A DNA stretch of 64,000 nt from an uncultured Planctomycetales bacterium (GTDB taxonomy: Bacteria; Omnitrophota; Gorgyraeia; Zapsychrales; CAYRXT01). Positions 7,134-62,300 of this stretch are shown piece by piece; position 1 is the stretch's first letter, and each line of letters opens with the position of its first letter. Location: positions 18,944-82,943 of the forward strand of contig CAYRXT010000001.1 of the NCBI GenBank assembly GCA_964428315.1, written 5' to 3'. The notes below the pieces were generated by a model. That model saw nothing but the letters and a program-made list of their open reading frames with translations, did no database searches and was not told the origin of the DNA. Made by a program: the position numbers and the translations under genes.

Positions 7134-7197
7134 AGCGGCCTCGCAATGACAGCAGTTTGGACAGCATTGATTTGGCAGTAATTATGAGGCAGGTCTT

Positions 7198-7503: not shown

Positions 7504-7506
7504 GCC

Positions 7507-11929: not shown

Positions 11930-11951
11930 TAAAACCCCTTCCACCTACGAG

Positions 11952-13667: not shown

Positions 13668-13696
13668 TTGCAGAAGCATGATTAATATGGTATAGT
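13668..13696 (+). promoter_or_regulatory. candidate sigma70 promoter TTGCAG-N17-TATAGT
   Basis: -35 at 13668-13673, -10 at 13691-13696, in an AT-rich spacer. Confidence 0.35.
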
Positions 13697-13702
13697 TATA
13701 AC

Positions 13703-38300: not shown

Positions 38301-41300
38301 TGGGTGACGGCCCGGCTATCGTCAGCAAACGGTTCGTCTGGGATGAGGCCTTTACGCTCGGGGAAGACGGTTTCTATGTTATGAACCCGGACGCGCCGGA
38401 TATCTTCCATGAAGGGACGGTCAGGGATCCCGCGTATTACGCCCGATTAACTGAGGTGTCCGGTAAAAATACCATCGGGATCAAGAACCGTTATGAGGAG
38501 CAATTGGATAAGGCCTGGGAACTGCAGGCGGCCGGTGTAGAGAGGTTTAACACAAATAAGAAAAAAGGTAACCTGCCTGAGAAAATCGCAGTAGCTCAGG
38601 CAGGGCTGGAGCAGTATACCCTGGCGGTCCAAGCTTTTCAAGAGACAAAAGAATGCTGGGAGGAAAACAGCGAGGCATTACGCGAACGGTATGTGTTTCC
38701 CGATGAGGAGGAGGGTAATCTGCGAGAGGTTATCATGTCCTCGCAAGCGAACATGGCAAAGATGACGAAGTTCCTCGAGTATCTTCAACGAGAGCAGGAA
38801 AAGATATCCCAGGTGGCCGCCGAACATGCCGCGCCGGAATCCGACAACCACATGGCGGAAGACAACGCCGAGCCGGATTATTATGATTTAGAGACACTTA
38901 TTAAGGATCGGGCCTACGGCTCATGGACGGTCTCGGCCGTTCGCGAAGAGCTGAAGAAGCTCCTGGCCATGAAGAGATGGATGATAAACGCCGTGAGGAT
39001 CGATCCCCTGACCGGGCTTTACAATCGGGCCGGTCTGGAAGAAAAGCGGAACCGGTTGAGAGAACTGCTGGCGCGCGAGGAGGAAAACCGGGCCCTGGCG
39101 CACTTGATGCTGGACATTGATTATTTCGGGGCCTTTAACAAGATTTTTGACCAGGAGACGGGCGACAGGGTTCTGGAGGGTTTTGCCCGTGCCATTAGAA
39201 GGACAATAAGGGACGGGGACGTGGCGGCGCGTGTCGGAGGCGAGGAGTTTTCCCTCGTCCTGCCCGGAACGAATATGGAAGAGGCGGAATCGCTTGACCA
39301 ACGGATCCGCGAGGAGCTTGCCGGAACAGAGAATCCATTATTCGGGGATCTTAACAGAAAGCAGTTTGTTCAGTGGCGCTTGAACGGGGTGATGCGTAAG
39401 ATAAAGGAAAGAACGATCCGCAATAGTGACGATATCAAAAACATAAAAGCCGCCCTTGTTCACCAGCTCCATGTCCAGGATATCCTTGAAAAGGAAAAAG
39501 CGGAGAAAATGGCCATACACGAACTTCCCATCGGTAAGTTGCGGAAATGGGTCGTGACCTACAGCGCGGGCGCGGCGGAGTACAGCGAATTCCAAGCGGC
39601 AGGAAACGCTTTGCGGTTCCTTGACGCCGCGGCGGATCGGGCTCTGTATGCGGCCAAGCAAGGTGGCCGCAATAAGACGGCCCGGTTCCAAGGCACGATT
39701 GATAAGTTTGAAGAGGAGAATGAAATATCGCCGGCCGGGCCCGCTTCTGGGGGGCTTGAACTTTCCGGAATCGACTGGGCCGATAGTGAAGTGGAGAAAA
39801 AAAGAAAAAAGACGCTGATTCGGGATATAAACAAGGTGAAGCAAGACCTGCAGGTCCTTAGGCCTTTGACCGAGACGGATCCTCTCACCGGCCTTGCCAA
39901 CAGAAGGGGGGGTGCCTTTTCTTTCGCCGCGACGCGGTCTCTGCTTGCTCACGCCTTGAGGAAACGGCATCTGTCCATAGCCTTATTGGATCTGGACCAT
40001 TTTAAGGTTATAAACGACATTTTCGGCCATGACGGGGGAGACCGGGTCTTGAGTTTTCTGGGAAAAGTTTTGGGGGATAAGATTCGGGGCATGGATCTCG
40101 CCGCAAGGTTCGGGGGCGAGGAGTTCACCCTGGTCGCGCCTCATGCCCGTCCGAGCGAGATGGCGGGGGTCACAGAGCGGATAAGACAAGCTTTGCGCAA
40201 TGATTCTCTTGTTCCGGACTTTTTGAGCGACCGCGAAACCATCCATACAAGGATTAAAGAGATCATTAAAAAGGGCGACACGAGAGATATGAGCAAAACC
40301 GCCGCCGCGGTCAGGCTTCAGTTGATCACGCAGGGGCTGGCCGAAGCGGGGGATCTGGTGGACAAAGGACTGGAAGACTTGCCATGGCATAAACTTGAAA
40401 AATGGATCGTGACCTTCAGCAGCGGTATCGCCGGTTATTCCGTTGCTCATAATCGGGAGGAAGGCACCCCTGCCTGGCAGGAGGCAGGGAAGCGTGCCGA
40501 AGAGAAGCGCAAGGAGGCCAAGCACGGGGGCCGGGACACTGACGAGGTAGACGATAGTGGCGGTTTCACCGAAGATGTTCAGGCAATAGGCGAGGTTTGG
40601 TTCGACGAAAACAACAGACCACAGGTAAAATTACCATCCCCCGACAATGACCGTGACGTTAATATGGCTGAGAGTATTGAAGCCGGACAAGCGGCAGGTA
40701 CGGCGGTACGGAACACCGGCTCAGTATCGTTGGGCGGTCCGGGAAAGCTTCCGCCGGGCAGTTCGGTGGAGACGGGTTCACGGCCGCCTACGCCGGAGGA
40801 GTTGTCGGCGCATAGGGGAGATGCGGGATCTTCCGGGCCACCCGCATGGGCCTCTCATCCCGCCGTGGGGGACAAGGGTCCCTTGGGCAGTTCAACCTTT
40901 AGCACGGTCATGCCGGTGCGGAAAGATGACGGTGCGGCCGGCGATGTCGGCAGTACCGTGTTCATGGGCAGTATGCCGGTGTCCATGAAGCTTCTGGCCC
41001 GGGTGACCGCCGATGCCGTGGTTTCGACGGCGGACCTCAGGGAAGATATCCTGCGCATCCTGGAGAAGGACCCGCGCACGCTGATCCGCTATACCCACAA
41101 CGGCCGCGATTTCTACGCGCTGACGCGCGATGAACAGGGCCGCGTCCGGGTCGAATCCATAAGCCCCGACGACGTGCTCGCCGAGATCAAGGCCAAGAAG
41201 CAGGTCGCGCTGTTGGCCAACCCGTACACCCTGTACCCGGACAACCCCGATTATCCCGAACACGTGGACACCCCTGTCAGGCAGGCCGTGGCCGCGGCCG

Positions 41301-44300
41301 AGCAGGTCAATGAGGACATCTTCGGCGTGTTTGCCGGCCGGCAGAAGCCGGGGCGCGGCGCCGCGCGGACCGGAGGACAGGCCGGTGACGGCACGTTTGA
41401 GGCCCCGGGCGCGCTTCCCGGCGAAACTCCTTTTATCCCGGGAACGCCCGCCATGCCGGTCAACCCGGTCAGCCCGGTCAATCCCCTGCTCCACATGGGC
41501 ATCATGATCTTCGGCATGATCGGCGGCGGCGCGGACGAGTTCCTCGGAAGGACGCTGGGCCGTTCACAGAAGCATAAGAGCCGGCAGAGGGGCCTGATCG
41601 AACTGGCGGCGCGCCGTATCAGCAAAAACTTCGCAGAGGAAGCCCCGGTCACGGTGAGGGACGTGGACACGGGCCTTGTGCCTGAAGAGAAAGAATTTTT
41701 GTACATGATGGAGGAGGACACCAATTTCGCCCTCCGGCTTCGGGATAAGATCATTGTCCCTCCGGAACCGGGGAAAGACCACGATCCCCGCGGCCCGCCG
41801 GAACGCCCTGAGCGCGATGTCTTTATGGTCGAAGATGTCCCGCCTGCTCTGCCCGGGAGCGTTTTCTCCAACGTCAGGCCCATCGAGAAGGTCGAAGTCC
41901 CCGCGTCATTATATCCTTACGAAGAAAAAATCAAACCGGCCGGTCAAAGAAGGACCCAGTTCTCCGAGATCGATGCCGTCGACAAAGCGTCCGACCTCCT
42001 TGACGGGGCCGCGAAGGCCGGCGACATATCAGACGAGGTGCGGCACATGTGGGTCCAGTTATTCGAGCTGAACAGCGATGAGGACGGAAAGCTGTTGATC
42101 GGCTACCGCCCGGACCAGATCTTCCTCGACCAGATCCTCTTTGAAGACAAGATCGGCATCCTCGAGAACGCCAGGGGCAAGTCCGCCGTCCTCGCGAACC
42201 AGTCCATCCGCAACGTCCGCAAGGGCCATAATACCCTCCTGGTTGCCAAGAACATCGCGCAGTATACCGGAGACGCCGACGCCCCGTTCGTCAAGAGCTG
42301 GAACGAGACGGCCCGGCATATCCTGAAAGACGACGGGGCCGCCTTCATGGACCTGGACAAACTCTTCGAGACCTGGAAGAAGGCGAAGGGTCCGGAGCGG
42401 GACGAACTCGAGAGGGAGATGCTGGAAGCGCTGAAAGATCCCCGGAAGGTCAAGGTGGTCACGAAGGATACCATCGGGTACATGCTCCTCCATTTTATGA
42501 AATACGGGGAGTTTGAGCTTTTGGGCGCGCTGACAAAGCTCGTGCTGGAAGGCAAAGGCGTCGTGGACGAGATCGACGAGGTTTACCTGGCCACGGTCAA
42601 GAGCTACATCATTGCCCTGGGTTCCGGCGAGGAGATCCCGGCCCTGGTGCGGATGCACGAAAAACAGCTCGAGAAGCTCTTCAAGCGGCTGAACATGGAG
42701 GGCAGCAGCGAGCCCCACGCCTTCGACCGCGATTCGCGCTGGCCGGTCATCCACCGGGCCGAGACACCGGAAGAGTTCGAGGCGTACCAGAAAAAGAGCA
42801 AGCTGGCCTATTACGCCGGTCCCACGGGCGGCCCCATGGTCACCGGCCACCACGATTTTCTCCTCACCGAGGCCGTGTACCAGCACCGGGCGTTCAGGAA
42901 CATGTCGAGGAACATGGTTTACCAGGCCGCCAAGGCCAAGGTCGAGCCCCTCACGGCCAACATCACCTTCGCGGAGGACGAGAACGGCAAGATCGTCAGG
43001 CTCGGCCACCAGGAGATCGCCGGAAAGCTCGTGGAGAACATGCGCGTCTCCAACATCCCCTACATGGTCATCAAGGCCAAGCAGTACGGTGTGAATATCA
43101 AGGACCTGCCCTTCTCGGAAGGTTCGTCGCTTTCGGTGGCCATGACGCACGCCTTTTCCAAGAACGTGGTCGGCGTGTCCGCGACCAACATCGGGCTGGT
43201 CGCCTTGCTCGGCCTCACCGGCAAGCGCATCGCGGTCATCAAGTCGAGCGACATCCTGGAACAGATCGCCATGTCGCCGGAAGACCCCGGTTATAAGACA
43301 AAGTACGTGAAGATCGTCCATGACGACGGCGCGGACGTCCAGGATGAAAGGCTGAAGACCCTGGTGCTGGAGAAGCTGGGCAAGGGCGGATTTTCCGATG
43401 GAATATACTGGGAATTCTCCATCTTCGCCGCGAAGCCGGACGAGCGCGAGCGCGTCAGGAGGGCCGTTAACGCGGCGATTGATGCCACCGTCAAAGGGGA
43501 TGACGGTCAGGGCCTTGTCAAACCGGTCCTGGTCAACCTGTCCACGAACACACCGGAAGAAGACAAAAAGCTCATCGCCCGCAACGAAGAACTGCCCACG
43601 GACACGGAAGACGAGAAACTGAACCGGACCAACAAAGAAAAGAACAGGCGCTACCGCCTCGGCCACCCCCGCAGGATCATCCTCTGGTCCTTCGACGCCA
43701 AGAAGGCCCTCACCGTGAAAGGCAAGAGGAGCGTCAACATCCAGTTCGGCCTGGACGACACCCTGGACTCCGCCGCGCACGGCTCCAAGCGGACCCAGCG
43801 CGACGATGACGACATCGAGGGCGAGCGCTACCTCTTCCTAGAGACCGGGGCCCTCAAGAAGAAGCTGGCCACCGTGCCGACCGTGGTCCTCGCCTTCGAA
43901 GAGCTGATCAATAAAAACCGTGACCTCCTTGAAAGGCTCGGCCTCGGGGAGGACGTCCTCAAGGAGAACGTCCACGTCTTCATGGACCATTTCAAAGGAA
44001 AAGTCCTTGGCGCCGGCCTCCTGGAGAAGGAGGAGTTCACCCGCCAGGAGATGATCGAAATGTACACGGCCCTGGTCAGGTACAACACCATCCTCCAGGT
44101 CAACGTCACCACCAAGGCCAGGATCAACGCCCTGAACAAGGACACCCGGATCGTGGACCGCGTCCAGGAATGGATCGAGAGGAACAAAAAACTCCTGTCC
44201 CAAGCGGAGGAGCGGCACGACAGGGACGGGGTCAAAATGTACAAGAACAATGCCGCCATCCTGGAGACGCTTTACCGCCAGGTCACCTGGGGCCTTTTTG

Positions 44301-47300
44301 AGGGCGAGGACAAGCTTTCCCTGGACCCGGTCACCGGCGGCGGCTGGGCCTTCAAGGCCTCGGAGATGAGCTGGAAGAACGTCCTGCAGATGTGCGAGAC
44401 CGCGCTCAAACTGCGCGAGAACGGCCAGGGGCTGTCACAAAAACTGCGGTACATGGTGGAGGCCCACGCGAACCTGGCCAAGGACCGCATGGAATGGGAG
44501 ATGAAAAACACCACGGAGATCCTGAGGTTTTCCGACTTGACGCGGGTCATGACCGGCCTCAAGGATTCCGTCAAGTCTGAGGGCATGACCGCGGCGGATT
44601 ACGAGAACCTCTACCGCTTCAGCGTGGAGATGGCCGAGGTGACGCTCCTGCCCACCCGGGTCGTCTCCGACACCCCGAAATCGGCCCTTTACGCCCTGCC
44701 GGCCGAGATGCAGTCCGTGGGCCGCGACCTAGAGACCGTGACGCTCGACGAACTGCCCGCCTATCTGCGGACACTGTGGCAGGACCTCTCGGACAAGTTT
44801 GAGACAGGGGCGCAGGGCTTCGACGCCTGGATCCGCGCGGACGGAGGAGGCAAACAGATACGGGATATCATCGAACAATACGGCTGGCTCGTGCCCGGGA
44901 CTCGGAAGCTGGGCGAGCACGCGGTCCAGTTTGTGCGCATGGCCCTCGATTTCATGGCGCGGCCCGTGGAGGTCCGGGAGAAGCTGGTGGCCCTGGCCGG
45001 CGCGCGCTCGCCGCTCGAGGCCGCCTACAAGCTGTTTGTCAGCGGGATCACCAGCCAGAGGACCCTGATGCTTTTGGTCTTCATGTACAGTTTTTACGTG
45101 GAGAAACTGGAAGGCGGGGGCCTGAGCCTGAAGCAGCTGCGGGAGGTTATGACAGCCGTTGCCGACAGGCCCCACGAGCTGGCCGTCGAAGTGGCCCGGC
45201 GCATGGGGCTGGAAGAAAGTTACATCATCCGGAACTTTGAACAGTGGTTCAGGGATGAAGGCTTCGGGGAGCTCACCGAGGAATACCTCGAGGAATGGAG
45301 CGACGCGCTGAAGCACGAAAACAGGATCAGCCGTCTCCTGCGCGGCAGGATCGCCAACGCGCGCCAGCATTTCAGGCAGAAGAAGGTCCGGGAGACCGTG
45401 AGCCGGCTCATGAACCTGTGGGCGCCGCCGCTCAAGAAGATCGAAGGCCTCCTGGAGCGGGTGCGGAAGTCCGCCGTCATGGATGACCTTTCCCACGTGG
45501 AGCTCATGAGCATCATGGGCGTGAACCCCCCGATGAACAAGGTGCTGGGCCTCAGCGGGCGTTACAAACATTTTCTTGAATCCGCGCGCGAGGTGTTTTC
45601 GGACAAACACTACCGAAAACAGACCGTGCCGACCATCGCGTACCTCGCCGCCTTCCCGCGCAACATCGTCAGTTTTATCATGAGGCCGCGGCAGAGACAA
45701 GATAACCTGGGGACGGTCGGCGCGCAGAAGGCCGTCGAACAGGAAATGGCCTTCATCGCCGAACACGGGTTTGTCCCTGTCAGCGAGATCAGGGCCCTCC
45801 TCCGGGAGAGGATGACGTCCGATGAGCGGGGTGATACTAAGGACCTCTCAAAGGGCGACGCCGGCAGACTGCGTGAGCTGATCGGCCGCGCGGTGGACGG
45901 ACATGTCGCCGCGGAGCGGTTCCTGCGCAGTCCCGAACTCGCGAAATATCTCTCCCGGGTGCGCGTCGTCATCCGGGGCCGCCTCAACAGCAAGACGGAG
46001 ACCGACGAGAATAAAAAGGAAAAACACGTCAAGGGCGTGCTCGAAGACTTGGCGGACAAACTGGGCGCGCTGGAAGAGGACGTGGACGAACAGGGGTTCC
46101 TTGAGAGGGTAACCGGGGAACCGGGGATCACAATTGTTCAGATCGAGCGGATCCACAACATGATCCGAGACTGGCACGAAAAGACAGGGCTGGACATCGA
46201 ACTGTCCCTCGACTCGGTCCTGCGCGCCGGTATTGACGCGCTGGAAGAATACCTGGCCGCGTACGCGGAATTCAGGCAGGAAGAACTTGACGTTGAGGCA
46301 TTAATAGAAGGGACTAGGAAAGCCGGACCGGATGCCGCGTCCTTGGAGGATGTCCTCAAGGGTAAAGACAGCCGGGGGGCGCGGGGGGCGGTTTTTGAGG
46401 CCGTGGAGCGGGGCAGTCTGCCGTTGCGCGCCGCTTTGGCCCAGCTCAAGGACGCGGCCGTCATGGCGTTCAGACAGCGCGGGGCCGCCGAGCAGAAGGC
46501 CAGGGAGGCATCCATTGTTATCGGGCATAACACAAAGAACCGCGTCAACGTGGTCAACACGACGGGTATCCGGGGACGGAGCGGGTTTGCCGCGCTCCTT
46601 GAAAAGCTGGAGACGTTCATGGAGAATGTCTCCTACTACACAAGGGGCCTGCCCGTGTCCGATATTGTCCGTCAGATCAAGCTCGTGGAGGGTTCGGACA
46701 ACCTCTGGTCCTTCACCGTGCCGCCGGCGGACGTGGGCCTGGAAGAAGGCGAGGTAGACCTCAGGCTGGATATCTCCGCGCTCGAATGGTCCCCGGTTGA
46801 GCAGGCGGCGCTGGCCGTCCTTTTGGCCCGGAGCCTGAACGACCGTGAGAGCCAGCTGGCAAAAAAGATTGACAGGGAAGGGGCCGCCGGAGAGCAGGCC
46901 AGGGAGCTTGCGGACATTCTGTGGGGAGGCGAGAAAAACTCGTTCAACCACAAGGACCTGGCCGGGCTCAGGAAGGCGTTGGACGACATACTTGATGTCA
47001 TCAGTGAAAAGGCCGGTAAAGCGGATATCAGGAAACTCGCAAGAAAGATCCGCGGCATACTGAAGAAGGCTGATAAGCAGGACAAAGGCGCTCAATGGGC
47101 GGACAAGGAGATCCAGACGCTGTTGAAGAAATTTTTACACAGGTTTCAGAAGACGCTGGATGAAGACTCCATTAAGCATTCCGTCAGGACCGCGGCAGAG
47201 GAGGCCCTGGGGGTCGTGTGGGACAACAACGCCGGCCTTCTTAACGATGCCGCCGAAAAAGACAAAACCAAGGACAAGGACAAGGATGATGACGAGGATG

Positions 47301-50300
47301 ATGATTCTCCGCTCTGTTCTTTCGATGAGGAGACCGTCGACGGGGTTGCAAAGCACATACGGGATCTGATAAATGAAGAATACGGTGACATCGTCCGCGG
47401 ACGGGTTGAAGAGAGATCAGGGTATAAAAGCAGAGAGGATGCCGCGGATCAGCAGAGTTCATCGGAGGCCGCCGAAACCGTTGATAAAGGAGAAAAGGCT
47501 GAAGGCGGAACTGGGGCTGCGGAGAACCAGTCCGGAGAGAAAAAGGACGAGAAGACAGAGGAGGAACCACAGTCAGCGCCGAGCGATGGGGACACAGGGA
47601 CCCGGGCCGCGGATCAGACTGACGATCACCCCAGCGAAGGGGCAGGTTCGGGCACGGCAGAGGAAACAAAAACAGAGGATTCAAAGGCAGACGCCAAACC
47701 GCGTTCGTTCCGTGAGAAGGTTGTCCGCTTCTTCAGAGGCAACGGCGAGAAGGCGCGCGAGGTAAGCCGTCAAGTCAAAAAAGACGCCGAAGATAAGCTG
47801 AAAAAACTTTACGCTAACCATGATAGTAATGAAAAGAAACGATTGAGAGGGAAGACTCTCAGCGAAAGCCGCGGGCGCGAGGTCTATGGGCCGAAGGGGC
47901 TGGGACGCCTGTTCGATATTTTGACCAGGACGCGGTATTTCCGTATCAATCTGCCCTTTATCGGCTATTTTTACTGGGGTTACGACGGCAGGGGCTTTTA
48001 CGCGAACAAGGAGATCAGGGACGAGGAAGGCAGCACCGCCACTTTCCCGCTCCCCTCCGTCGTGGTGGCAACCGGGGGCGGGCTGACCTATTTCGACTTG
48101 ACGGACCTGGCTCCGGCTGTCGCCGGGTTTTTCATCGGCGGACCGGCCGGCGCCGCGGCCGGCCTGTGGATGGCGGCGAGCAGTCTTTTTCAGCACGAGG
48201 TCAAGGGCCCGGTGGTCGGGTTTGTTTCGGGCCACGCGCGGACCGCGGCCATGTACGGGCGCAAGGCTTCGTCCACGGCGATTTCTCTCTTCGGCGGCGT
48301 CAACAAGGTCAACCTTGACGGGCTGGCGGTGTGGCGGAAACTGCGCGTTATGGCGGCCGGCCCCATGGCTAACCTCCTGGGCGCGGGCGTGGCGGTCTTT
48401 CTTGGCGCCCTTCTGGGCGGTCTGGGATTCGAATCCCTGGCCGGCGTCCTGAGCGGCGCGTCGGATTTCAGCTCTTTCGGCGCCATGATAGCCAGCATGG
48501 GACAGAACATCGCCGGGCTGGTGCAGTCCGTGGGCAGCGGGCTGTGGTTCTCGCTCGATTTTTACCAGAACATCAACCTCCTTACCCTGAACCTGTTCCT
48601 GGCCCTGTTCAACCTCCTGCCGTTCGGGTTTACCGACGGCGGACGCATGCTGAGTGAAGGCCTTACCGCGTTGCTGAAGTCCACGTTGTACAGGAACGAC
48701 GCTTACGGCGCGGAGCGCGCGGCCAAGACCGTGATGAAATGGTGGACACGCTCCGCGGGCTTGATCGGGGTCGCCGCCCTCGCGGTCAGCGGGATAGACT
48801 GGATCGCGGCGTTCAGGACCGGAGGCGGCGTGCTCCTGGGCGGGACCCTTGTTCTCGGGACCGCCGGTTATCTGGCCGGGAAGATGATCAAAAAGTTGAC
48901 CAACGCCCGGGTTCCGGCTGCCGTGAGATACCTTAGAAACGGCATGCTGATAGCGGCCGGTTCGGTTGTCGCGCTTCATTTTGGGGCGATGCTGTTCAGC
49001 CACGCGGCGGCGTCCGCGGCCGGGAGCGTCGCGCAAGGCCGGCTGCCGGCCTCGGTTTTCCTGAGCGCCGCGGCGATAGCCCTGATCGCGAAGATCATCA
49101 AGAAAGACAGCGCCATTGGCCGCGTGGTCAGGCCCATGACGACACGCGTTTTCTGGAGCGGCCTGGTCATGGGTATTCTGGTCATAGGGGGCAACATGGG
49201 GCTTGTCTCGCTCGGGGCCGGGTCTGGGGCGGCCGCGGGACTCAAGGTCTTTGAGGGCGTTATGCAGAATTTGAACGGCCTGGCGCCGGCGATGCTGAAC
49301 GGCGCGGCCTCCTTCCTCGGGCTGACGGCCCTGGCGCCGTTCGCGGGTCATGTCGCTGGACACTGGCTGTTTGCCTCCGGGGCCCTGAGGGTCCTCGTGG
49401 TCGGCCTGGTGTCCGAATTCATGGACAACGATCCCTACAGCCACGGCAATAACACCGATGACGAATATCAGGACGGTGAACTTCACGGTAGTCTTTTCCC
49501 CAATGTTTTCAATATAGGGACATCTCTGCTCAGGACAGCGGCTGATATAACCGGAGAAGACGGCGATCCTCATTGGCAGCAGGTGAGCGTGACCGATCCC
49601 GGGCTGTCAGATTTTGGACCGGGACCGGATGAAGACGGTTATGTGCCTGACGCCGTCGGCATGCCCTTGCCGCCGGCTCCGGCCGCGGGTCCTTTGATCC
49701 CGGGGACGCAGACGCCGTTATATTTCTTTGAGCCGTCTTCTTCGACGTTTCCGCTGATCTTCGGCGCGACGACTCCGGGCCCTGACGGAATGAGAATGAC
49801 AGTGGCCTCGGCTTCGCGCGGGGACGCCGATCCCTTCCAGGCGGCCACGACCGACAGGGGCCCGTTTGCCAATGTCAATTCCGCCGCGCCGGTCGAACCG
49901 GTGCCGCCGAACCCCGGCTCCGGTAATAACAACCCGGGCGGTCCGGGAGGCGGGAATCCTCACGCGGTGATCGCCTTTGTCAATAGTCAGGCAGGCGACC
50001 GTGCCGCTGTGGCACATTCCAGTGTTACCGATCCGAATATCTCAGGTTATCGTTGGACTCTATCGACATCTAGCAATGTCAAAGCGTCACATTATATGTC
50101 AGGCAACACAAGTCCCACGCCGTTTCGCGCTGCCGCCCTTTCCACAAAGGGTCAGGCAGGGAACGCAGTAGAGTGGATCATTGATCAAACAGGAAGAGCA
50201 GTACGTGTAACAGTACACGCAGTTGCTGGTCTGATTTTGCCGACGCCGGTGTACGCGGCTGAGGTGAAAGACAGTGAAGTCTCTAACACGCTTATCGGCA

Positions 50301-53300
50301 AAGGGTTGTATGGATTCGGCCCGGCGTCGGTCGCGGGTGATGTGACAGGTGTGCGAGGTGTGCGCACGCGGAACAGCAGTGCCACAAGTGAAAACGGTCC
50401 AGCCATCCGGGTTACATCGGGCGTTGACGAAGCCCCGATGGGCCGAAAAGGCGGTATCCCGAGTGTCTATACCGGAAACGGTACAGGCGCGGAGGCGTTC
50501 TTTGGTGGTGTCAGTTTTGCAGGTAACAACGGTCAAGATCGGCCTGTGACAACGGCGACGGTACCTGTCGTCCACGGCTGGAACGGATTGACCGGCGGGG
50601 TTACCGGTGGTTCGGGAAGTGCGTCCGGTCGGAACGCGGGGAGATCCGCGGGACAATCGGGCCGGAACCTGAGAGATGTTCCAGAAAATCTCAGGTTCTC
50701 TGGTGTTTCCTCCACAGGCGGCCAAGCCACGGACTACCGCTATAACAGCGGCAGAGAAAGCCGGGAATCCGGGACAGGGACAACAGGCATCCCCACGGAC
50801 GATGCCGGGGACGGCGAAGCCGGTCCCGAAGGGTCCAGGGCCACAGTCACGGGAGGATCGCGAGGAAAGGGTGTTACCCGAGGTTCGATTCGTGTGTCCG
50901 GTACCGAAACGGTCCATGAGACCGGAATGGCTGCCGGCGAAGCCTTTAATGCGAATCGGCCCCGCACTGAAGACAGTACCGTCCGGCATGACGGACCAAA
51001 TGAAGTTGTAAATAACCCTGTGAGCCGTTTAGGAAACAGAAGAAACGGTCTGCAGGAATTTTCTGTATTCCCCACAGACGTCATTTCCCTCTACAGCGGG
51101 TTCGATTTCTCCCGTATTTTCCAACGGATATTCAACTCAATCAAACTGTCGTTGCGGGCCCTGAAAGGGCCAAGCGATGACACAAGCCACGGAGGTGCGC
51201 GATGGTTTACCCAAAGCAGAACTTTACGGACATGGATCTCTCGCACGCGGTCGAGTTTCCGGAATGCGATGTCTCGGTTAACACGGGCCGTGAGCGTTCG
51301 ACAGGACGAACGCGGATCTTCCTCATCTTCCATCACACGGGCCGGGCGTTCGCCCGTTACCGCAACGCCTGGTCGCCTCTGGCGAACGATGACGCGCGTC
51401 TTGTCCTGGCCCTCGCGGCGAGCTCAGATATCCCGCGCTATCGCGCTTCCGGCAGTCCTGATAGCCTTATTCTCCAGTAATGAAGCCGTGGCGGCCGGCG
51501 GGCTTCCGGCCGAAAACCTTCATTTGACCCCGGCCGGCCTGGCGGTGTTCCTGGCCCTGGGCGCGGTCGCGCTGGGGATCTACCTCTATCATGCCGCCAA
51601 TAATGAAAAGGCGCCGGGCCTGTCCGGAACCGGTCTGATCATGCGTGAATGGCTTTACGGCGGGGCAGATCTCCTGGCGCTTGTCGGCAGTGACCCTGAA
51701 ACGGCCCGGGACGTCCTGAAGACGCTCGAGGCGCTTACCGGCGAACCGGGCGCGGCAGGAAAGAATTTCCATGATAAAGAGGTTTATTTGAGGGCCCGGG
51801 ACACGTTCTTCGCTGATCTGGATTCCCGGGGCGTTACCTGTGAAGAATTGGAGCGTCTGACCGCCTCTCTCAGGGAAACAGCGGGCCTGGCCGGTGAGGC
51901 CCGAGAGGAGGAGACCGCTGAGGTTGTCCGTTACGCGCGAGAGGCGCGGACCGGCGTTTCCATGGCGAAATGGATCGGATGGGCGGCGGTCGCCGGGAGC
52001 GTCATCGGCCTGCTCGGCCGCATTGTCCTGGCCGGCCCGGTTGACGCCGGCATCCTCTGGCTGTCCGGCAGTCTGACCGCGGCCGGGGCGGCCATCCTTG
52101 TTGCCGACCTGACTGCCGGGCGCTGGGAAGGCATCAGGGATTCCCTGGAGAGCATTACGGACCGGTTGACAACCGGAGACGCCCGATTCTTCCCGCGCAT
52201 CCGCTATTCGAGGAAGACCCTGGCCCTGGTCATCGGCCTCATGATGGCCGTGCTTGCGGCCGGGATGGTCGGGGACGCCCTCCAGTCTCAGGAGCCATGG
52301 ACAACCACGGACTCCGGATACGTGAATGACGCCGCCGCCGGGACCGCGGGCGGCAGCGCGGCAGGCCCCGCCCCCGAGAACGGAGAGGGCAGGGAACCGC
52401 CGGATCCCGAAAAGACGCTCTCCCGGAACGCGGACGAACATCCCTTGCGGCGGGACCAGGACGTTGTTTTCGCCTCCATGGTGGATTGCGAGCTGGCGGT
52501 TAAACTCGCCGTGAAGTCCGTGACATGGGTTAAGGATCTGGTGGAGAAACTTCCGTTTGTTGATAACCCAGGGCGCGCGACGAGGTCTTATGAATCATGG
52601 ATCATTCCGGAAACGCCCGGGTCATGGCTCCGGGTTCAAAATGTGCACGGCAATACCGTTTATAACGCGAACCTCAACGGGATTGATTCATTCCAGTGGG
52701 ACGGCCGGGACAACCAGGACCGTGTTTTGCCCCAGGGCGTCTATCCCGCCCGGATTCGGGCCGGAAACAAGGAGTTCGGCTTTAAGTACCTTATCTCCGG
52801 AGATGATTTGGCAAGGGCCGCTTACGCCGTAGCCAAGAAAGGGACGATCAAGGCCTTCATCCCTGACCTCTTTGCGCAGGGTTTTATAGCGCCGGTAAGC
52901 ATGGCCGTTTCACCCGAGATACTCGTCTTGCTGGAAATGGAGAGGCAAGCCGCAAAGAAGAATTCCTTGGAAGATTCGCTTGCGCGGTCCCGGATGAGGG
53001 ACCTCTCGCCGTACGGTTACATTTACGACATGATGGGCCGGGAAAACCTCGAGCCGCGGGATATCCAGAGGATCGCCTTTCATTTCAGCGAACTTATGGA
53101 GAGCGAGGACGTGGAAGGCTTCAAGACAGCCGCGGACCTCTTCATGCCACGACATCAGGCGATCCTGAAGACGGAAGGGCATCGGCGGCTCTTCTGGCGT
53201 TTCTGCGACATTAACGCGGAGTTCCTGAATTGGATGGCCTGGAGAGAGGACCTTATGGTGAGCAGCGCATTCTTCCTCAAAGGCGCCGGTGAATGGCTGG

Positions 53301-56300
53301 CCGTGATTGAAGAAAACGATGAATCTGAAACGGCCGCGCGCCGTCTGGGACTGCCCATCGAAGAGAGCCGCAGTGTCGGACCGGGGATGACAGAAGATTT
53401 AACAGGGATGAAAATGGCCCAGGCCTCGACGGGCCGATACCTGGTGGCGGCCAACCTTTACAGGGCCCTCCCCATCTTGACAAGGAAGCAGATAAACCGG
53501 TTGGCCGGCGGCGTTATCGACCATGTGCGCTTTGTCCTGACCGGAGAAAACGCGCAAGGCGTCATTGAACTTTATCCGGTCCAGGCGCCCGAACCCTGGA
53601 CCTACGCCCTGGCGAAGGTCCCGTCAAATTCTTTCTTCGGTGATGCCAGATACCGCGATATACATACAGACTGCGTCACGCACGAAGCCGAGCATTTGTT
53701 CAAATATAACCGGATGGACATGCCGCTTTACATGAACACGGAGGTGGCTTTCAACGGCGGGTACATCCGGCTGGGGCCGGACGTCGTGCTTATGCGCGCG
53801 GTAGCGGTTTCCTTGTATAACCACTTCACCGGAAAGGACATGGTCGAGCCCGGGACAGCCTGGCAGGGGAGGCCGTGGCTCCAGTATCCGCATTTTGAGG
53901 AAGGCGGCTGGGCCGACTGGCAGGGGAAATGGGGCGGCTGCGTCGATTCACTGAGAAATTATATTGCGCGGAAAGCGGAGCGTGAAATCGTTTCCGACCG
54001 CAACTCTGAGATCGAAGAGGCCATCGCGGCGTACAGCCGCGGCCGGGATCTTTACCGCCTTTCCATGGGATACAGGGAATTCCTGGAGGAAAAATACGGT
54101 CCGGCGGCCGCGCGGTTCGGCGCGGACGTCTTCTTTGAATGGGTTAGCCGTTTCCCGGTCCTGGACGCGGACGTCGACACCTTGAGCCAGAAAGGCGTTT
54201 ACGGGCTGAGCCCGGCCGGGGCGGCGGTGGCCGCGGAGGCGACCGCGCGTTCCTATGCGTCGGACATCAGGGATATCTTCGTTGATGTCTGGAAGGGGAT
54301 ACGGCTTTGGAGCCATCAGGGCGTGACACCCGAGCAGGCCGCCGGCCGCGCGCGTTCGGCCTTTTACCGGACCTATGTGCCGGTGATCGTGGAAACCGTC
54401 AGAAGTATGAACGTCCCGCTGAGGGCCGAAGGGGCTCAGCTGGATTCTCTCGTCGGAGTTGTTATCGAAAAATTGGAAGATTTCGCGTATACGGGCGGCG
54501 ATATGTTTGACCCGGCTGTGCCGATGGATATTGCCGACGCGGCGGTTGTCGCGGCGGTGCTTGACGAAAATATCGGGCACAACTACACCGTGGACAACGG
54601 AGGTTTCAGTGTCATGGCCGATTCGCTGGACGAGGCTGAAGGAAAACAAGTGGCGATGAGCGCCGCCGGCGAGGCCGTTTTCTGGCAGGAGGACCCCGTC
54701 CCCGGCGAGCCGGGCCCGCTGCCCGTTGTCCCGGGGCGGCAGAACTTTATCGTCAGTTCGGTTTTCCTGACGGCAAACTGGATCCGGTCAATGCTGTCTC
54801 AAGACGCGCGGGCCCTTGACAAGACCTCCTCCGCGGCCGTGGAGGGCTTCTTTTACACGCCGCTTCCCGACGCCGATAATGTCGTCGAGGATACGGCGAT
54901 GACGGCGCTGTTCCGGGACAAGGTCTCGGAGATGGGCTGGCCGCACCCGTATCTGTTCCGCGCGATCCCGGTGTTTTACGTGGACAGCCGGACGGCGGAT
55001 TCCCTCGGGGTGACATGGGTCGGGCCCTACGAAGACTTCACGTCAAATGGATTCTCCCCGGAGGCGGACCCGGACCAGGACAGGGTTGTTTGGGCGCCGG
55101 TGGTGGACGGGATGTGGGGCGGACCGGGTCCGGCTCCGGAGTACCAGGACTATTACGACCCGGACAACCCGGATTACGACATGGCCGAGGATTATTCGGT
55201 GAGCCTGGCCGATACGGTTACCGGCGAGATGTGGGACTTCTGGTATTTCCGGGTGGATGTCCACGGCAATTATTACGCCTCGGCAGTGAAGTACTGGGGG
55301 CCGGGCAGCTGGCGGGGAGACGGGATCAGCACCTGTCAATATCCGGGGATCCGGGGCGCCGGGACACCGCTGGGCGCCGGACTGCTGACGCAGGAAGAGA
55401 TCCTGCGGGCGCGCGGAGGAGACATGGACGCGGTCACCCACAAGCTGATTTTCGCCTGGCCCTATTCCAGCAGTGAGATGAGATGGCCGGCGACACGCTC
55501 CGACGGGTGGAGGAGCGCGGGCGAGGGGATACCGGAAGGAACACTCTTACAGCTTGACCCGGGACATGATTATGAGCCGTATATCCGCCATTTGTCTTCC
55601 GAAGAAGACAGGAACGTGGCCCTCGCGCTGATCCGCGCGCTGAAGACATACGGCGCGGTCTGCGTGGACAACGGCGGAGGGTTCGGGATCATCGTCGAGC
55701 AGGTGGACGGCACGCACGCGAAACTGAACCCGGACTGCCTGGCGGGGATCAACCTGGACAAGTTCCTGGTCGTGGCGCCGGAGAGTTTCCCCGCGGGCCT
55801 GGCACTGGAGCGGAGGATTGATCCGGAGGATCCCCTTGAGGGATATAAAGAGGTCGGTATTGAGCTGATTGTCAACAGGGACGATCCGGCGGCCGCCTCG
55901 AAGGTCCGCGCCGAGTTCCGTTCGCTGGACGGCGAAAGCCTGGTGGAAGACAACAGGCACTTGATGCGGATGAACCTGGCGGCGGGTGAATTCGCGTGGC
56001 AGGACATGGGAGACGGCCGGGCGCGGATCGCCTTCGGGGTGGAGACTTCCAGCCGGGGCGGGGCGGAGAGCCTCATGGCCGACACGAGATACATCATGCG
56101 CCTGACCGTGGAGGACGGGCGGGGCGCCGAGAGCTATCCGCTGATCCATTCCTTCCGGTCGCCGGCCGTGGCGACGGACGTGGTCCCGGCCGCGGACGGT
56201 GACGGCGAAGATGGAGGAAATCTCCCGCAAAACTACCCGAACCCGTTCAATGCGGCCACGTCGGTGTGGTATGAGGTGCCGGAGGCCGGGCGCGTGGAGC

Positions 56301-59300
56301 TTAAGGTGTACACGGTCTCCGGGCGGGAAGTGAGGACGCTGGTGGATGAGTACCGTGAGGCCGGGCAGTACAGCGTGGTGTGGGACGGGCGGGATGATTC
56401 CGGCAACAGCGCCGCCGCCGGCGTTTACCTGTACGTGGTGAGGCTTGACGGCAGGGTCATCGCGTCGAAGAGGATGACGCGGATGGCGGCGCAGAGGGAC
56501 GGCCGGCAGGGATGGCTGGGAAGCCTCAAGGACCTCTTCAGCATCTCTGAGGCGAGCGCGGCGGTCGAAAATCGGTACGCGGCGGCGCGGATGAAGGCTG
56601 GACCTTTCGCCCTCGAGCCGGCCGAAGCGGCCGCGCGGGCGGTCAACACGCCGGAGCCCGCCGGTCAAAACGCTGAAGAAGGCCGCGTCAGCCTGACGCT
56701 GGGGGATGTTTACGAATATATTGACATGCTCAGGGATTACAGTGACGGGCAGATACAGGGATATTTTGACATGGTCCCGGCGCTTCAGACGGCGGAGGTA
56801 TGGGAGGATTACGCGGTCATGGTCCGGATCCTGCTCCGGGAAAAAGGCGTTGCCGGGGACCCCCTGCGGTATGAACTCTTTGCCAGCCGGCCGGAAGGTC
56901 CCGGGACCGAAGTCGTGCCGGCGGTCTCCGAAGAGGAGGCCATGGATATCCTGACCGGGAAGAAATACGCCTACGACACCTTGGCCGTCAAAAGACTGTA
57001 CAAAGAAGTTATCGAGGAGCATCAAAGCAGGATGGTCCGCGACCCCGGGCTTTCGCGGCTGGAGGTCTTCCTCATGCGGTCCCAAAACATCACGCCGGCC
57101 GAGGGGCCGGAGGCGCGTTTTGGGCGCTTACAACGGACACACGCGGACGATGAGTTTGTCTCGGCCAATAGGCGTATAACCCTTTATGGTAAGGACATTT
57201 TCCACCCGACATACATCCTGGACATAAGGGGAACCGAAGTTGTGCTTAATGTGAGCCTGAAACCGGTGTTCCAGACCGCCGCGGCCGAACAACTCCTTGG
57301 GAAAATTGATGCCCGCGGCGCCGAAACCCAGGCGCTGGATATGGTGGACACACTGATGATATATATGGAAACCGCCTGCCGGGCGGAAGAGGCCGGGGAC
57401 AGGGAAAGCGCCCTGATCAACTGGAAACACGCGCTGTGGCGCGCGGAACAACTGCAGAGACTGCCCCAACCATCCTTCAGGTGGTGGTATTACGAATTCG
57501 CTGAGGACCTTGTCGATTCTATCAGGCAGTATATCCGCCGTCATTATGAGGCGCCGGGCCGGGGTATTTGGGATCGGCCCGGAGCCGTCCTCCACGGTTG
57601 TTTAAAAGGAAAGACGGGGCCGGCGGCCGGTTCGATCGTGATGAGCCTGGCGCCGCTTATGGCGCGCGCGGCCGATCAATTGGCCGGCGCCTTTGCCCAA
57701 AAGCGGCCATCGCGGGAGCCATCTATTAAAGATATTAATGGAATTATTAAGAAAATAGACGGATTAAAGGCAAGCGTGACCAGGGAAATAGCATCTCGAG
57801 AAGATGAAAGGAAGGTTAAGGATGCGAGGAAGAAGATTTATGCGTTGATATCGAAACTATACATTTACGCGTCAGAAAGCAATATCGGTATCGAAGGTTT
57901 TAAGAAGGAGGCCTGGAAGCTGATCGACCTCGCGGAGTGGGGCAACATTAACGTCAGGATGAAAGCCAGAGATCAATTACGAAGTATCTTGAACAAGAGG
58001 ATCCCGTCCATGAAAGAAGATCCTCGGCATAAAGATCATTTGGATGAAATAAAAAAGATCGAGAAGGAAATGAAGAGAATTATTGATGAATTTGATAATC
58101 GAGGCAAGAAGAGCCCCCGCGGATGTGCCCCGGCGCCTTCCATGGTCAAGACGGTCCTGCGGGCGGCGATGAATGGAGTTCAGTATATCCTTGCCGGCCC
58201 CGAGCTCCAGGCGGCGGAGGCCGCTCATGCCGCCGGGGACAAGTTCTGGCAGGATGTGGCCGCGCAGGGAGAATACAACCAGGCGGACATCGACGAAATG
58301 GCGCGGGTCACCGACAGCCTGTGGCTCGCCGCGGACCTCCCCTCGCCGGATGACGTGGAACAGGACTTGGTGCCGGCCCTGAAGACGGTCTCGACCGCGG
58401 AAGATTCCCTGGAACTGGCCCGGTCGTTCCTCTCGGCATGGGAAGTGGAAAAATTCAGGTTTCAAGACGCAAGGCAGCATGTCCTTTTCTCGCGGATCTT
58501 CGCCGCCCCGCTGGCCGCCGCTGACAGTATGCGGAGGGTTTTGAGCGGAGACCGCGGGACAGACAGGATAGAAGATGTCCTCGGCGAAGGCTGTGCTCTG
58601 GGCAGGCCTTACGCCGGGGCCGTCCTGTCCCGTATTTTTGAAGAGACGGCTGTTGATGTGCTGGGGATGGATTTGCCGGGGCATGTCTGCGTCTTTGTTG
58701 CCCTGAACACGGAGTACGGGTTTATTTATGACCCTTCATCGCTGACAACAAGCCGGGTCTTCCGTCTGGCGCGGTACACGGAGAAGGCGGGAGAGACCTA
58801 TTACTTCAAGGAGGCGTTCTACACCGAGGTCATGCCCGAAGGGTGGGCACCTGACAGGGATATATACACGGAGTTCCGGCTGTTATCCGTTGAGAAGTTC
58901 GCGGCAAAGATTCTGTTCAATATTGGCACTTACTATCTTGACCTTGATGCATTCTCAGCAGCGGCGGATTATTACAGACGAGCGCTGGCCGTGGATTCGA
59001 CGGACGCGGACGTCCTTAACAATTTGGGTAACGCTTATTTCAATCTGGGCGAATACGGGGCCGCGGCCGAACAGTACACGGCGGCGCTGACCTATAATCC
59101 CGAGAGCATTGAAAGCCGCAAATATCTGGCCCTGACCCTTGCTGAGCAAGGCAAAAAGACGGAGGCCATAATCAATCTTAAGGCATACCTGGGCGAACGG
59201 CCCGACGATTATGCAATGATGTTTCAATTGGCCCGTATGCATACGGCGAAGATTTGGATGATTTTGGGGACTTTTTTGGCCGCTTGTATCGTGGTCCTGG

Positions 59301-62300
59301 GAAGAAAACTCGGCGGACGGAACAAGGGCCGCGGCGACGGGAGCCAGGACCGTAAGGCGGGGGCGCCGGATAACGGGCGAAAGGGAGAAGACACTCATCT
59401 CAAAGCCGGGATTGAGATTGAGGGGCCGGCCGCGCGGATCATCCGGACTGTCCGCGGGTGGATGAGGAAGCTGGTTTTCAGGCGGTATGCTTCGGACACT
59501 GTTAAGGCCGCGCGCGAGAGGGCGCCTCCTGTCCGGAAGATATTCTCCCGCCTTGCTGCTTATTTTACTCAATCCCAAAGGACAAATTCCGCATCACAAG
59601 CCAATGACCATATCGAATTTTTAAATCCCAAACGGTTTCGGGCTTTGACATTTTTGACGTTCCTGACGGCCTTCTTCTTCAGCAGTGACCTGCTGGCGGC
59701 CGGGAACGCGGCGGCGCAGGAGGCCGCGCGGTCTTCCGGCCTGGAAGGCCTGGTAATCCTGCTGGCGCTGGGCGCGCTCGCGCTGGGGATGTACTGGTAT
59801 CACGCGGCAAGAGATGAAGAAGAGCCGGGCCTCTCCGATACCGGCGAAATCATGAGCCGCTGGCTTTACCAAGGGGAAGACCTCCTCGCGCTTGTGGACG
59901 GCGATCCCGACACCGCCGCGGAAGTCCTCAAGGTCCTCGAGGTGCTGACCGACCTGACCGGATTGAGGGGCGCGAAAGATCCCAAACTTAAAGCCGTTTT
60001 TGAAAACGGCCGTGACCAGTTCATGATTGCTCTGGACCGGCGGGGTCTCGGGCCGGAAGACCTGGAGCCGGTCATGGCGTCTCTCAAGACGTCAGCCGGC
60101 AAGGCCGCGCGGACTTTGCGTAATGAAGAATCCGTTGAACCCGCCGCGCGTAAGGATGAGGTAAGGCAACCCGTAGACCCCGGCGAATTTTCTCTGGCGA
60201 AATGGCTGGGCGGCGCCGTGGCCGCCGCCGGCCTCGTCGGACTGCTCGGCCGGCTGGCCCTGGCCGGAACGGCGGAAGCCGGCATCCTCTGGCTGGCCGG
60301 GGGCATAATTGTGGCCGGGGCGGCCACAATTCTCCTGGACCTGATTGTCCCGCGGTGGGATGACTTCGCGGAGGGCCTGAAGCGGATGAACGATCCGGAG
60401 TGCCGGCCGGAGCCGGTCCGGGGCGCGAGCCCGATGAAGCATTTCTGGCGCTGGACCGGCATCATCGTCCCGGTCCTCGCCGCGGCCGCGTTCCTGGCGG
60501 GCGTGATTTCGGTCCCCGCCGCCTTTGTCTCCGCGTTTTTCGGGCTGACGGCGCTGTTCGTCAGCTTCGGCTACGGCCGCGAAGGCGGTTCCTACATGAG
60601 CGGCGTGCGGCATTCCAGGGTGTTCCGGTTCGGCATGGCCCTGATGGCCGGCCTGCTCGTGATCGGGGTGTTCGCGGGCGGGGCCGACGCGCAGGACATG
60701 GGGCGGGTCGTCCAGGTCGACTACGACCGCGACGGGTTCGACGACATATCGGTGAGGCTGCCCGAGAGGGCCGGGCTCCACAGCCTCGCCGGCAAGGCCC
60801 CGGAAAAGAGCGTCTCCGAGCTGGAAGAGTTCTTTGCCGGGAACCCCGGTGTCATCGCGATGGTCCGCGAGGACCTCGCCCGGGACAGCCTGAAGCGGAC
60901 GATCCGCGATTCGCTCGACACCGAGGACTTGTACCGGGGCACGCTGGATTCGCTGGCGGCCGCGAAGACCGAAGAACTGGCCAAGTACAACCCCGGCACG
61001 GACCTCGGGGCCGACGCCGCGCTGGCCAGGAAGATGCGCGGCATCGTGCTCGACGAAGAGGCCGAGCTCCGCGCGCGCGAGAGGATCTCCCGCGACCCCG
61101 AGGCCGCGGCCGCTGTCGAGGTCAACGACGAGGCAATCAGCGAGGCGATTAAGCGGACCGCGGCCGCCGTGGACCTGCGCCACGTCTGGCCCGTCCGCGC
61201 CGAAAAGCACGGCCTGCCCGTCAACGACCTCTGGATGGCCTACGCGATCCTGGGCGGCAACTTCCCCGACATGACCGGGGACGAGATCAGCGCCACGGTC
61301 TATCGCCTGTTGAAAGAAAACGACGATTTCGGCGCCGCGTTCACGGATTTCCTGGAGAAGAAAAAGGCCGGCGCGGCCGCGGACGAAGAAGAGGCCGCCC
61401 TCAAGGCCCTCGAGGTCACCTTCGCCGACAACCCTGATATCATCCCGTCCATCGTCCGGACCTGGAACGAGCGCCGGGAATTGCTGGAAACCTATTTCTC
61501 GGACCTCGGCGCCTTCGGCAAGTTCACCCGGGCCGTGATCATGCAGGAGAGCGGGTTCGGCACCTACGCGACGAGCCACAGGTTCGACAGCTCCGGCAGG
61601 AAGATCCCGCTGGCCAAGGGCCTGATGCAGATCATAGACGCGACCTATGCGGACCAGAGCGGGAAGCTGGGGCTCGGTCCGGACGTTTACCACCGTCTCG
61701 ACAACGTCCGGGCCGGTACCGATTATTACGCGGATCGACTCAGGGATTTCCGGGATATCGAAATGGCCCTGGCCGCGTACAATTACAGAGCTTATAAGGT
61801 CGCGGCAGCTATTGCCGAAGCCAAAGGCATTTTGCTGACTGTCGCGAAGGAGAGTTTTACAGATTTGATAGCCGGAGGAAATATTGACGCTTTTCTGGAC
61901 GAGAACAGGGATTCCTTTAGAGAGTCTCCTGAAGAGATCAAGGCCGCGGCCGAACATCTGTCTGCCGATATGGCCGGGTTAAATGCGCTGCTGGGCATGA
62001 CGGCGTCTGATGCAAAGCGCGATAAGGTCACCAGGAAGCTCGCGGCGCCCAGGGTCTTGGAGATGATCGCCGAGGGCTCGCTGAAACCCAGTTTTGGGGA
62101 GACCGTTTCTCTGCTTCCCTCCGAGACCCAGAATTACGTGCCCAGCATCCTCCACATGTACGGCCGTGCCGTCGAGTACGTGGAGGCCAAAACCAGCGGC
62201 AGGCCGGCCGCCGTCAAGGCGCGGCCGGGAGCGCCGGATTACAGCAAATATATTCCGACAGAAGAGAGCCGGACTTACGACCCCGCCCTCGAGATGAGGG

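Follow-up and report, generated by a model that had tools for sequence, protein, structure and literature searches.

The 64,000-nucleotide window analysed here, taken from a contig of an uncultured Omnitrophota bacterium, encodes on its + strand the first part of a giant protein that contains two putative peptidoglycan-active domains, a Pal-type OmpA-like domain towards its N-terminus and an SLT lytic transglycosylase domain 13,800 residues (41.5 kb) further on. Both domains look functional, as judged from their intact signature residues. An initial annotation, made from the sequence alone, had assigned them to the same giant protein, which is borne out by the single uninterrupted + strand frame that holds both segments, and had proposed that together they bind and cleave peptidoglycan. 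That both domains are genuine is supported by profile scores, alignments and functional residues alike; a joint functional unit is not supported. They are separated by at least 20 predicted transmembrane (TM) helices, by HATPase_c and GGDEF domains in two copies each and by one M50 protease, and because of this distance and the many membrane passes the domains are not a bind-and-cut tandem. The pairing is also not conserved among homologous giants (27 readable open reading frames (ORFs); 59 gene starts). Comparison with these relatives indicates that the OmpA-like and SLT domains are variable cargo of a hypervariable body and not family-defining parts.

The SLT domain

Pfam scans over overlapping 1,000-aa chunks of the giant protein (19 chunks) placed the SLT family (PF01464; 45.0 bits, cut-off 21.3, E 9.3e-12) at nt 61529-61825 and also detected the OmpA family (PF00691; 59.6 bits, cut-off 27.2, E 4.1e-16). 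The hidden Markov model (HMM) check suggested in the initial annotation thus returned both families above their gathering cut-offs, and both E-values hold after correction for the 19 chunks. The motifs QESxF, GLMQI and AYN, on which the annotation had been based, are literally present as IMQESGF, GLMQI and AAYN. With residues counted from the Met at ATG 14348, motif I contains the predicted catalytic glutamate, E15734 (nt 61547-61549), and the adjoining S15735 (the E-S pair, nt 61547-61552); motif II is at nt 61619, its GLMQ being residues 15758-15761; and motif III is at nt 61775 (residues 15809-15812), where it is followed by Y-R, giving AYNYR compared with the consensus AYNxG (AYNAGP). The interval 61490-61830 originally assigned to the domain does contain motifs I to III but misses the domain end, as motif IV, ETQNYV (nt 62123-62140, aa 15926), comes only after an insertion, ~115 aa past AYN versus the usual ~25. 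This hexapeptide is identical to that of the best homologues (P0001, P0002 and P0004) and is aligned with SETRDYV of LtgA. With motif III counted in its AYNYR form, all four signature motifs are accounted for, and the complete SLT domain is predicted to extend over ~nt 61520-62190 (aa ~15725-15945).

The catalytic glutamate, on whose retention the initial annotation had made its claim depend, is kept on alignment. In an alignment of 18 sequences (A1) the E, S, GLMQ and AAYN columns are invariant, partly by construction as the loci were fished with those same peptides, and in an alignment of 68 sequences collected by profile search and aligned with MAFFT (A3) the same columns are invariant again, together with T233 and Y236. 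The profile column of E15734 is aligned to the QES of LtgA. Compared with the PDB, the A1 and A3 profiles matched Pseudomonas aeruginosa Slt (1e-28), LtgA (5e-27) and Slt70 (1qsa, 2e-21 to 2e-26), and also the structures of MltC, MltF, MltE and T7 gp16. A pairwise phmmer comparison of the SLT segment with the PDB had aligned from GLMQ onward only, missing the catalytic helix because of a 9-aa insertion after motif I, and was replaced by these profile alignments.

Against a local HMM built from 38 complete SLT domains the window sequence scored 60.6 bits in two collinear pieces (HMM 31-112 and HMM 118-136), and there is therefore an insertion between the SLT motifs. The columns of this insertion, which separates motifs III and IV, are occupied in at most 3 of 67 homologues (A3), and a search of 1.84 billion protein representatives returned zero homologues of it. 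AlphaFold2 (AF2), run with a deep alignment, modelled the SLT domain with a predicted local distance difference test score (pLDDT) of 78.6 and a predicted template modelling score (pTM) of 0.73, the insertion appearing as helices at pLDDT 85-95; a model from a 5-sequence alignment (pLDDT 52) was discarded. The top structural neighbours of the retained model are MltF, Slt, MltC, MltE and phage SLT/GEWL proteins, at E-values that are not significant.

Although identity to any SLT domain in the databases is only 30-43%, domain identity and motif integrity are consistent with a family-1 (Slt70/MltE-type, GH23) lytic transglycosylase. Like Slt70, MltC and MltE, P. aeruginosa Slt and MltF, and Neisseria LtgA, the domain displays E-S, GLMQ, AYN and ExxxYV, is predicted to be extracytoplasmic and membrane-tethered, and matches solved structures in profile comparisons at E 1e-21 to 1e-28. 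In contrast to these enzymes it is embedded deep in a giant polytopic chain, around residue 15,700, harbours two insertions and contains AYNYR.

The last TM helix before the SLT domain (nt 60620-60685, aa 15425-15446) has GVRHSRVFRF, with the charges R/H/R/R, on its N-terminal side and the acidic GGADAQDMG...DYDRDGFDD on its C-terminal side. The helix is signal-peptide-like (window 60620-60700), with an n-region (RHSRVFRF), an h-region (GMALMAGLLVIGVFAGG) and a c-region (ADA/QD, the stroke marking the AxA-like site). Such charges are typical of a signal-anchor in N-in/C-out orientation, or else of an internal Sec signal peptide, and the SLT tail, because it follows a helix of this kind, would lie on the extracytoplasmic side, with the SLT domain starting ~280 residues past the inner-membrane helix. 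A phmmer search with aa 15444-16550 against the 1.84 billion representatives yielded 21 matches, all inside the SLT core, which suggests that the flanks of the SLT tail are orphans.

The OmpA-like domain

The OmpA_C motif, described as clear in the initial annotation, was recovered not only by PF00691 but also by structural matches, as the segment hits 47 solved OmpA-like chains with Pal/P6 as the best (2aiz, E 1.5e-15). In the alignment with P6, TD(1851)EAGS...LGQKR(1866)AEAM of the giant protein corresponds to TDERGT...LGQRRADAV, giving the signature TDE...YN..LG..RA. The aspartate and arginine of OmpA-like domains contact the diaminopimelate of the stem peptide, and D1851 and R1866 are kept at the Asp and Arg positions of the Pal/P6 alignment. 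Among NCBIfam models Pal ranks first (Pal_lipo, TIGR02802), with 70.7 bits compared with an equivalog cut-off of 125.35. As this score falls below the cut-off and the domain lies inside a giant chain, the segment is predicted to be a Pal-type domain and not a Pal orthologue. It resembles the anchors Pal, OmpA, MotB, TssL and YiaD in having the complete OmpA_C fold signature, Pal/P6 being closest, and the diaminopimelate-contacting residues. Unlike the Pal/OmpA anchors it is neither a lipoprotein nor a stand-alone anchor, but is located at aa ~1,800 of a larger chain, on a side of the membrane that is uncertain.

The giant reading frame

On the + strand, frame 2 contains 16,557 codons without a stop between 14330 and 64000, and exits the 3' end of the window still open. 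The likely start codon is ATG 14348, the first ATG in frame, with the purine-rich AAAGGGAAATGG just before it. The predicted topology indicates that the product is a giant polytopic inner-membrane protein, of which the window holds the first residues, at least 16,551 in number. An independent Logan assembly (L047, run SRR7048225) is 100% identical to window 1069-21929, so the first 7.6 kb of the giant gene, OmpA segment included, is not an artefact of one assembly pipeline; for the 3' end of the window an exact match was absent from JGI metagenomes. The minus strand contains, between 16424 and 63169, many long ORFs antisense to the giant gene, of up to 893 aa (for example 16424-19105). Most likely these are not genes but shadow ORFs that arise from a GC-rich coding frame. 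The features of the locus are collected in Table 1.

Table 1. Predicted features of the window, in order of position (nt unless stated)
Feature	Position	Strand	Basis and remarks
Two TadB/TadC-like (T2SSF) genes	11069..12887	+	Pfam T2SSF, 61.7 and 50.7 bits; directly upstream of giant gene
Giant ORF	14348..64000	+	At least 16,551 aa; cut by window end
Signal peptide or signal-anchor, N-terminal	14429..14485	+	KSRFKGWIR-TVALVLVLVFVP-DQ; positive charges on N-terminal side; hydropathy scan and sequence
Peptidase_C39-like domain	14750..15160	+	Pfam, 32.8 bits, cut-off 22
OmpA-like (Pal-type) peptidoglycan-binding domain	19787..20044	+	aa ~1814-1900; Pfam PF00691
HATPase_c, two copies	~35.5 kb and ~37.1 kb	+	Pfam
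GGDEF, two copies	~39.0-40.4 kb	+	Pfam, 195 bits
Peptidase_M50	~48.2-48.7 kb	+	Pfam, 49.6 bits; within TM cluster
FlgD_ig Ig-like, two copies	before TPR	+	Pfam; first copy below cut-off
TPR	~58.9-59.2 kb	+	Pfam
Cluster of ~8 TM helices before SLT tail	59246..60685	+	aa 14967-15446; hydropathy and flanking charges
SLT lytic transglycosylase core, motifs I-III	61520..61831	+	Pfam PF01464; aligned motifs
Window-specific helical insertion, SLT motifs III to IV	61832..62119	+	~85+8 aa (about 85-93 aa)
SLT motif IV helix	62120..62190	+	PSETQNYVPSILHMY, with ETQNYV
Weak M23/LytM-like (barrel-sandwich hybrid) or cyclophilin-like piece	62297..62512	+	Both matches weak
Aromatic-rich, beta-amphipathic region	63173..64000	+	Cut by window end

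The conserved head and its relatives

The first 800 aa of the giant protein have eight homologues at 29-48% identity, all of which contain the C39 domain and all of which are truncated by contig ends. In an alignment of the C39 head (A4) the columns N147, C148, E232 and H233 are invariant, and every head homologue with a source name derives from a Candidatus Omnitrophica/Omnitrophota metagenome-assembled genome. These data place the giant gene among the known Omnitrophota giants headed by a signal peptide and a C39 peptidase domain.

A metagenome scan seeded with the head recovered 59 homologous gene starts (loci L049-L107), 27 of which were readable for at least 2,000 aa, with the ORF still open at the locus end in all 27. 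Collinear similarity to the window protein ends after ~460 aa (window 14348-15730) and the bodies are unrelated, so that the signal peptide and C39 head are the only part common to the 59 starts. The exception is locus L065, the one relative among the 27 to contain an OmpA-like domain (aa ~1681-1792, a similar position; phmmer 5e-10), in which a block of ~540 aa around that domain is collinear with the window protein at 24% identity. No SLT was found in any frame within the at most 10 kb of sequence that each of the 59 loci provides, a range that leaves an SLT far downstream in the relatives beyond reach.

Body and membrane topology

A hydropathy scan detected ~25-30 TM-like helices in the giant protein, clustered at the N-terminus and at aa 11334-11692 (M50), aa 12364-12642 and aa 14967-15446. 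The M50 domain, which is site-2-protease-like, sits in a cluster of ~8 TM helices (window ~48250-49420). Windowed BLAST revealed six internal repeats, compared with zero matches in a self-BLAST of the whole protein. Among these is a polytopic TM module in duplicate, 47% identical across 202 aa, whose copies (aa 12411-12605, window 51578-52160; aa 15148-15349, window 59789-60392) each precede a large predicted extracytoplasmic region, the first containing FlgD_ig and TPR and the second being the SLT tail. Tandem duplication is also evident in the module that contains HATPase_c (window 35174-37502, 30-40% identity) and in the GGDEF domain (window 39002-40439, 37% identity).

Lysines plus arginines flanking the helix at aa 12624-12642 number five on the N-terminal and none on the C-terminal side, and those flanking the helix at aa 14969-14985 two and five, respectively. 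Because these counts are self-consistent, aa 12643-14968, with both FlgD_ig copies and the TPR, and the tail from aa 15447 would lie outside the cytoplasm. Between aa 787 and ~9600 the scan returned only marginal TM candidates, and no convincing TM helix parts the HATPase_c/GGDEF signalling domains from the OmpA-like domain. Parsing of the N-terminal 3,500 aa by hydropathy and the positive-inside rule allows the OmpA-like domain to be outside but does not fix its side; a possible coherent order is signal peptide, TM444, TM767, OmpA-like domain outside, TM3422 followed by positive charges, and signalling domains inside.

Downstream of the SLT domain a degenerate M23/LytM domain was considered and rejected, as nt 62297-62512 score 18.9 bits, below the cut-off of 28.7, and HLH is replaced by VTI with no metal ligands evident; the same piece equally weakly resembles cyclophilin (2c3b, E 0.09). 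The last 260 aa are the stretch of the giant protein with the strongest beta-type amphipathic periodicity and the highest aromatic content: their ratio of beta to alpha hydrophobic moment ranks at the 99.9th percentile among 260-aa windows, and Phe, Trp and Tyr make up 14% of residues, versus 7.7% in the whole protein. The region nt 63173-64000 has zero homologues in Pfam, the PDB or the 1.84-billion-protein library, and is possibly a beta-barrel or beta-sandwich, the periodicity statistic being the sole support for such a fold.

The upstream locus

Beyond the two T2SSF genes the locus upstream of the giant gene (window 1-12887, also present in L047) contains approximately seven small pilin-like genes of 53-125 aa, with a faint Class_IIIsignal match, and two orphan proteins of 546 and 1,040 aa that match nothing in Pfam or NCBIfam. 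A 621-aa upstream protein displays a faint transposase-type helix-turn-helix. Neither an ATPase nor a secretin could be recognised in the window. The gene order suggests that the giant gene sits behind a locus like those of Tad and type II secretion systems (T2SS), a context already published for Omnitrophota giant genes. The 1.4-kb gap between the T2SSF genes and the giant gene (12888-14347) is of lower GC (~49%) and has no long ORF; Rfam and tRNA scans of the window, the gap included, were empty. The giant gene probably has its promoter and leader in this gap.

Discussion

Omnitrophota giants that carry an N-terminal C39 beside signal peptides, together with many TM helices, have been described; GGDEF, HATPase_c and TPR domains occur in them, and SLT is found 'less commonly' (West-Roberts et al. 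2023, 10.1101/2023.11.21.568195). A later study counted 5,761 Omnitrophota proteins of at least 10 kAA (thousand amino acids) and identified a PF03412 architecture cluster among the giants (10.64898/2026.06.07.730766). The window protein resembles these C39-headed giants ('Archaeovorin'-type sensu lato) in its signal peptide and C39 domain, its many TM helices, its HATPase_c, GGDEF and TPR domains, its SLT (occasional there), its upstream locus of T2SS/type IV pilus-like character with gspF-type and small pilin-like genes, and its hypervariable body. It differs from them in the OmpA-like domain, which is unmentioned in the main text of both studies (10.1101/2023.11.21.568195; 10.64898/2026.06.07.730766), and in an SLT that is split by a large insertion. 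Archaeovorins sensu stricto are defined by SecA_DEAD, glycosyltransferase, methyltransferase and NUDIX domains in a gene of more than 90 kb. Pfam detected none of these domains in the 16,551 aa available, although the giant gene is visible for 49.7 kb, so they could lie downstream. The protein is filed here under the broader C39-headed class and not as an Archaeovorin sensu stricto.

We favour, as an even call, the view that the OmpA-like and SLT domains may act on the producer's own envelope. From the periplasm, Pal-type OmpA domains bind the wall of the very cell that makes them, and envelope-spanning machines typically bring their own transglycosylase (VirB1, EtgA, FlgJ/SltF) and OmpA-type anchor (MotB, TssL, ExeA). 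The window protein would be like such machines in combining wall-cutting with a wall anchor, in forming a very large trans-envelope assembly and in having secretion or pilus genes adjacent; it is unlike them in that both modules are in one polypeptide, 13,800 aa apart, and the likeness is one of function, by analogy alone. The own-envelope role is preferred because of this analogy and the own-wall binding of Pal-type domains, because the SLT is tethered ~280 aa from an inner-membrane helix, and because a self-substrate is at hand, as Omnitrophota genomes encode complete synthesis of canonical peptidoglycan (10.64898/2026.06.07.730766). In the mechanism we envisage, the hypervariable body would have acquired two independent peptidoglycan modules. 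The OmpA-like module would use D1851 and R1866 for non-covalent binding of the stem peptide that contains diaminopimelate, while the SLT tail would be exported to the periplasmic side and remain tethered to, or be cleaved from, the inner membrane. There E15734 would serve as the single acid/base catalyst, cleaving the bond between N-acetylmuramic acid (MurNAc) and N-acetylglucosamine (GlcNAc) in MurNAc-beta-1,4-GlcNAc with formation of 1,6-anhydro-MurNAc. The SLT module might thus open the cell's own sacculus locally and the OmpA-like module pin it, so that the very large segments outside the cytoplasm, perhaps along with the adjacent pilus system, could pass through and be held in the wall.

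Several observations weigh against this view. AYNYR and the large insertion between motifs III and IV could each impair SLT activity. The weakly TM-separated stretch from aa 787 to 9600 holds both an OmpA-like domain, expected to be periplasmic, and HATPase_c and GGDEF domains, expected to be cytoplasmic, so its topology is ambiguous, and topology predictions are unreliable for such giants (West-Roberts et al., 10.1101/2023.11.21.568195). Neither domain is essential to the core function of the family, as neither is conserved in the relatives, and the C-terminal part of the giant gene lies beyond the window. Furthermore, the published role of SLT in Omnitrophota giants is a different one, degradation of the prey cell wall (10.1101/2023.11.21.568195).

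This published role is a lesser but tangible possibility. The giant protein would be located on or beyond the cell surface, perhaps by way of the T2SS/Tad-like system, where the SLT would digest the murein of prey or host and the OmpA-like domain would hold the exposed peptidoglycan. The hypothesis has been advanced for SLT in Omnitrophota giants and for the conserved secretion and solute-uptake genes nearby, and it gains from the predicted extracytoplasmic location of the SLT tail, from the Ig-like FlgD_ig domains and the TPRs of the extracytoplasmic region ahead of that tail, from the orphan beta-amphipathic region after the SLT, which could be a surface or adhesin module, and from the hypervariable body, which would suit an arms-race surface protein. 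Conversely, the SLT is only ~280 residues past an inner-membrane helix, no feature for passage over the producer's outer membrane was found, and Pal-type OmpA domains classically bind the own wall. The absence of the two domains from most relatives, within the ORFs and starts readable here, also weighs against it. The prey of the cultured relative is an archaeon that has no murein, and since the action of lytic transglycosylases depends on MurNAc, pseudomurein is an implausible substrate, a further count against attack on prey.

It is unlikely that the giant gene encodes a polyprotein. The precursor would be cut by way of internal signal-peptide-like helices or by the C39 or M50 domain, freeing the SLT tail as a periplasmic or outer-membrane protein of ordinary size, at least ~1,100 aa, that is functionally independent of the OmpA part. 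Consistent with processing, the n-, h- and c-regions of a Sec signal and an AxA-like site can all be made out in the last helix, C39 and M50 proteases are built into the chain, and cleavage of the giants into smaller polypeptides has also been proposed by West-Roberts et al. (10.1101/2023.11.21.568195). The same helix, however, could equally be a stable anchor. Release of the tail by processing is compatible with a role at either the own wall or the prey wall.

Less likely again is that the domains are passengers or in decay, opportunistic acquisitions of a shuffling ORF that are roleless or inactive, the SLT through its insertions and AYNYR and the OmpA-like domain through a cytoplasmic location. 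Sharing of only the first ~460 aa among relatives, with an OmpA-like domain in 1 of 27 and an SLT in no readable part, would be expected of passengers, as would the orphan SLT flanks and insertion, the ambiguous topology of the OmpA region and the 552 Pfam families that are scattered over the giants, 80% of these proteins being sequence singletons (10.64898/2026.06.07.730766). Neutral decay, however, would not be expected to leave the catalytic and structural signature residues of both domains intact; the insertion is predicted to be an ordered helical sub-domain and not junk, and the collinear block around the OmpA-like domain in L065 implies selection on that module. More doubtful still is the idea that the tail after the last inner-membrane helix is a self-contained envelope-crossing cassette (linker, interrupted SLT, degenerate LytM/cyclophilin-like piece and beta-amphipathic region) in which the SLT would breach the own sacculus and a C-terminal beta-barrel-like module insert in the outer membrane, so that one chain spans inner membrane, wall and outer membrane, or which would be freed at ADA/QD, making the giant gene a polyprotein processed by signal peptidase.

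The protein class, the gene context and the presence of SLT in Omnitrophota giants were already known from published work. New here are the residue-level confirmation of the two domains, the interrupted architecture of the SLT, the Pal-type OmpA domain shared with one relative, and the non-conservation of both domains. Omnitrophota giant genes rank with the longest known, and the published model of prey cell-wall degradation takes its main sequence-based argument from peptidoglycan-active domains. The data presented here indicate that in a giant such domains can retain every signature residue, with the SLT directly behind a predicted inner-membrane signal-anchor. As the OmpA-like and SLT domains appear to be sporadic cargo, however, any general inference from their presence is weakened. 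Whether they act on the own envelope or that of prey becomes a concrete, testable question, and the SLT (~270 aa) and OmpA (~120 aa) segments are small enough to be expressed and assayed, providing an experimental handle on an otherwise intractable protein.

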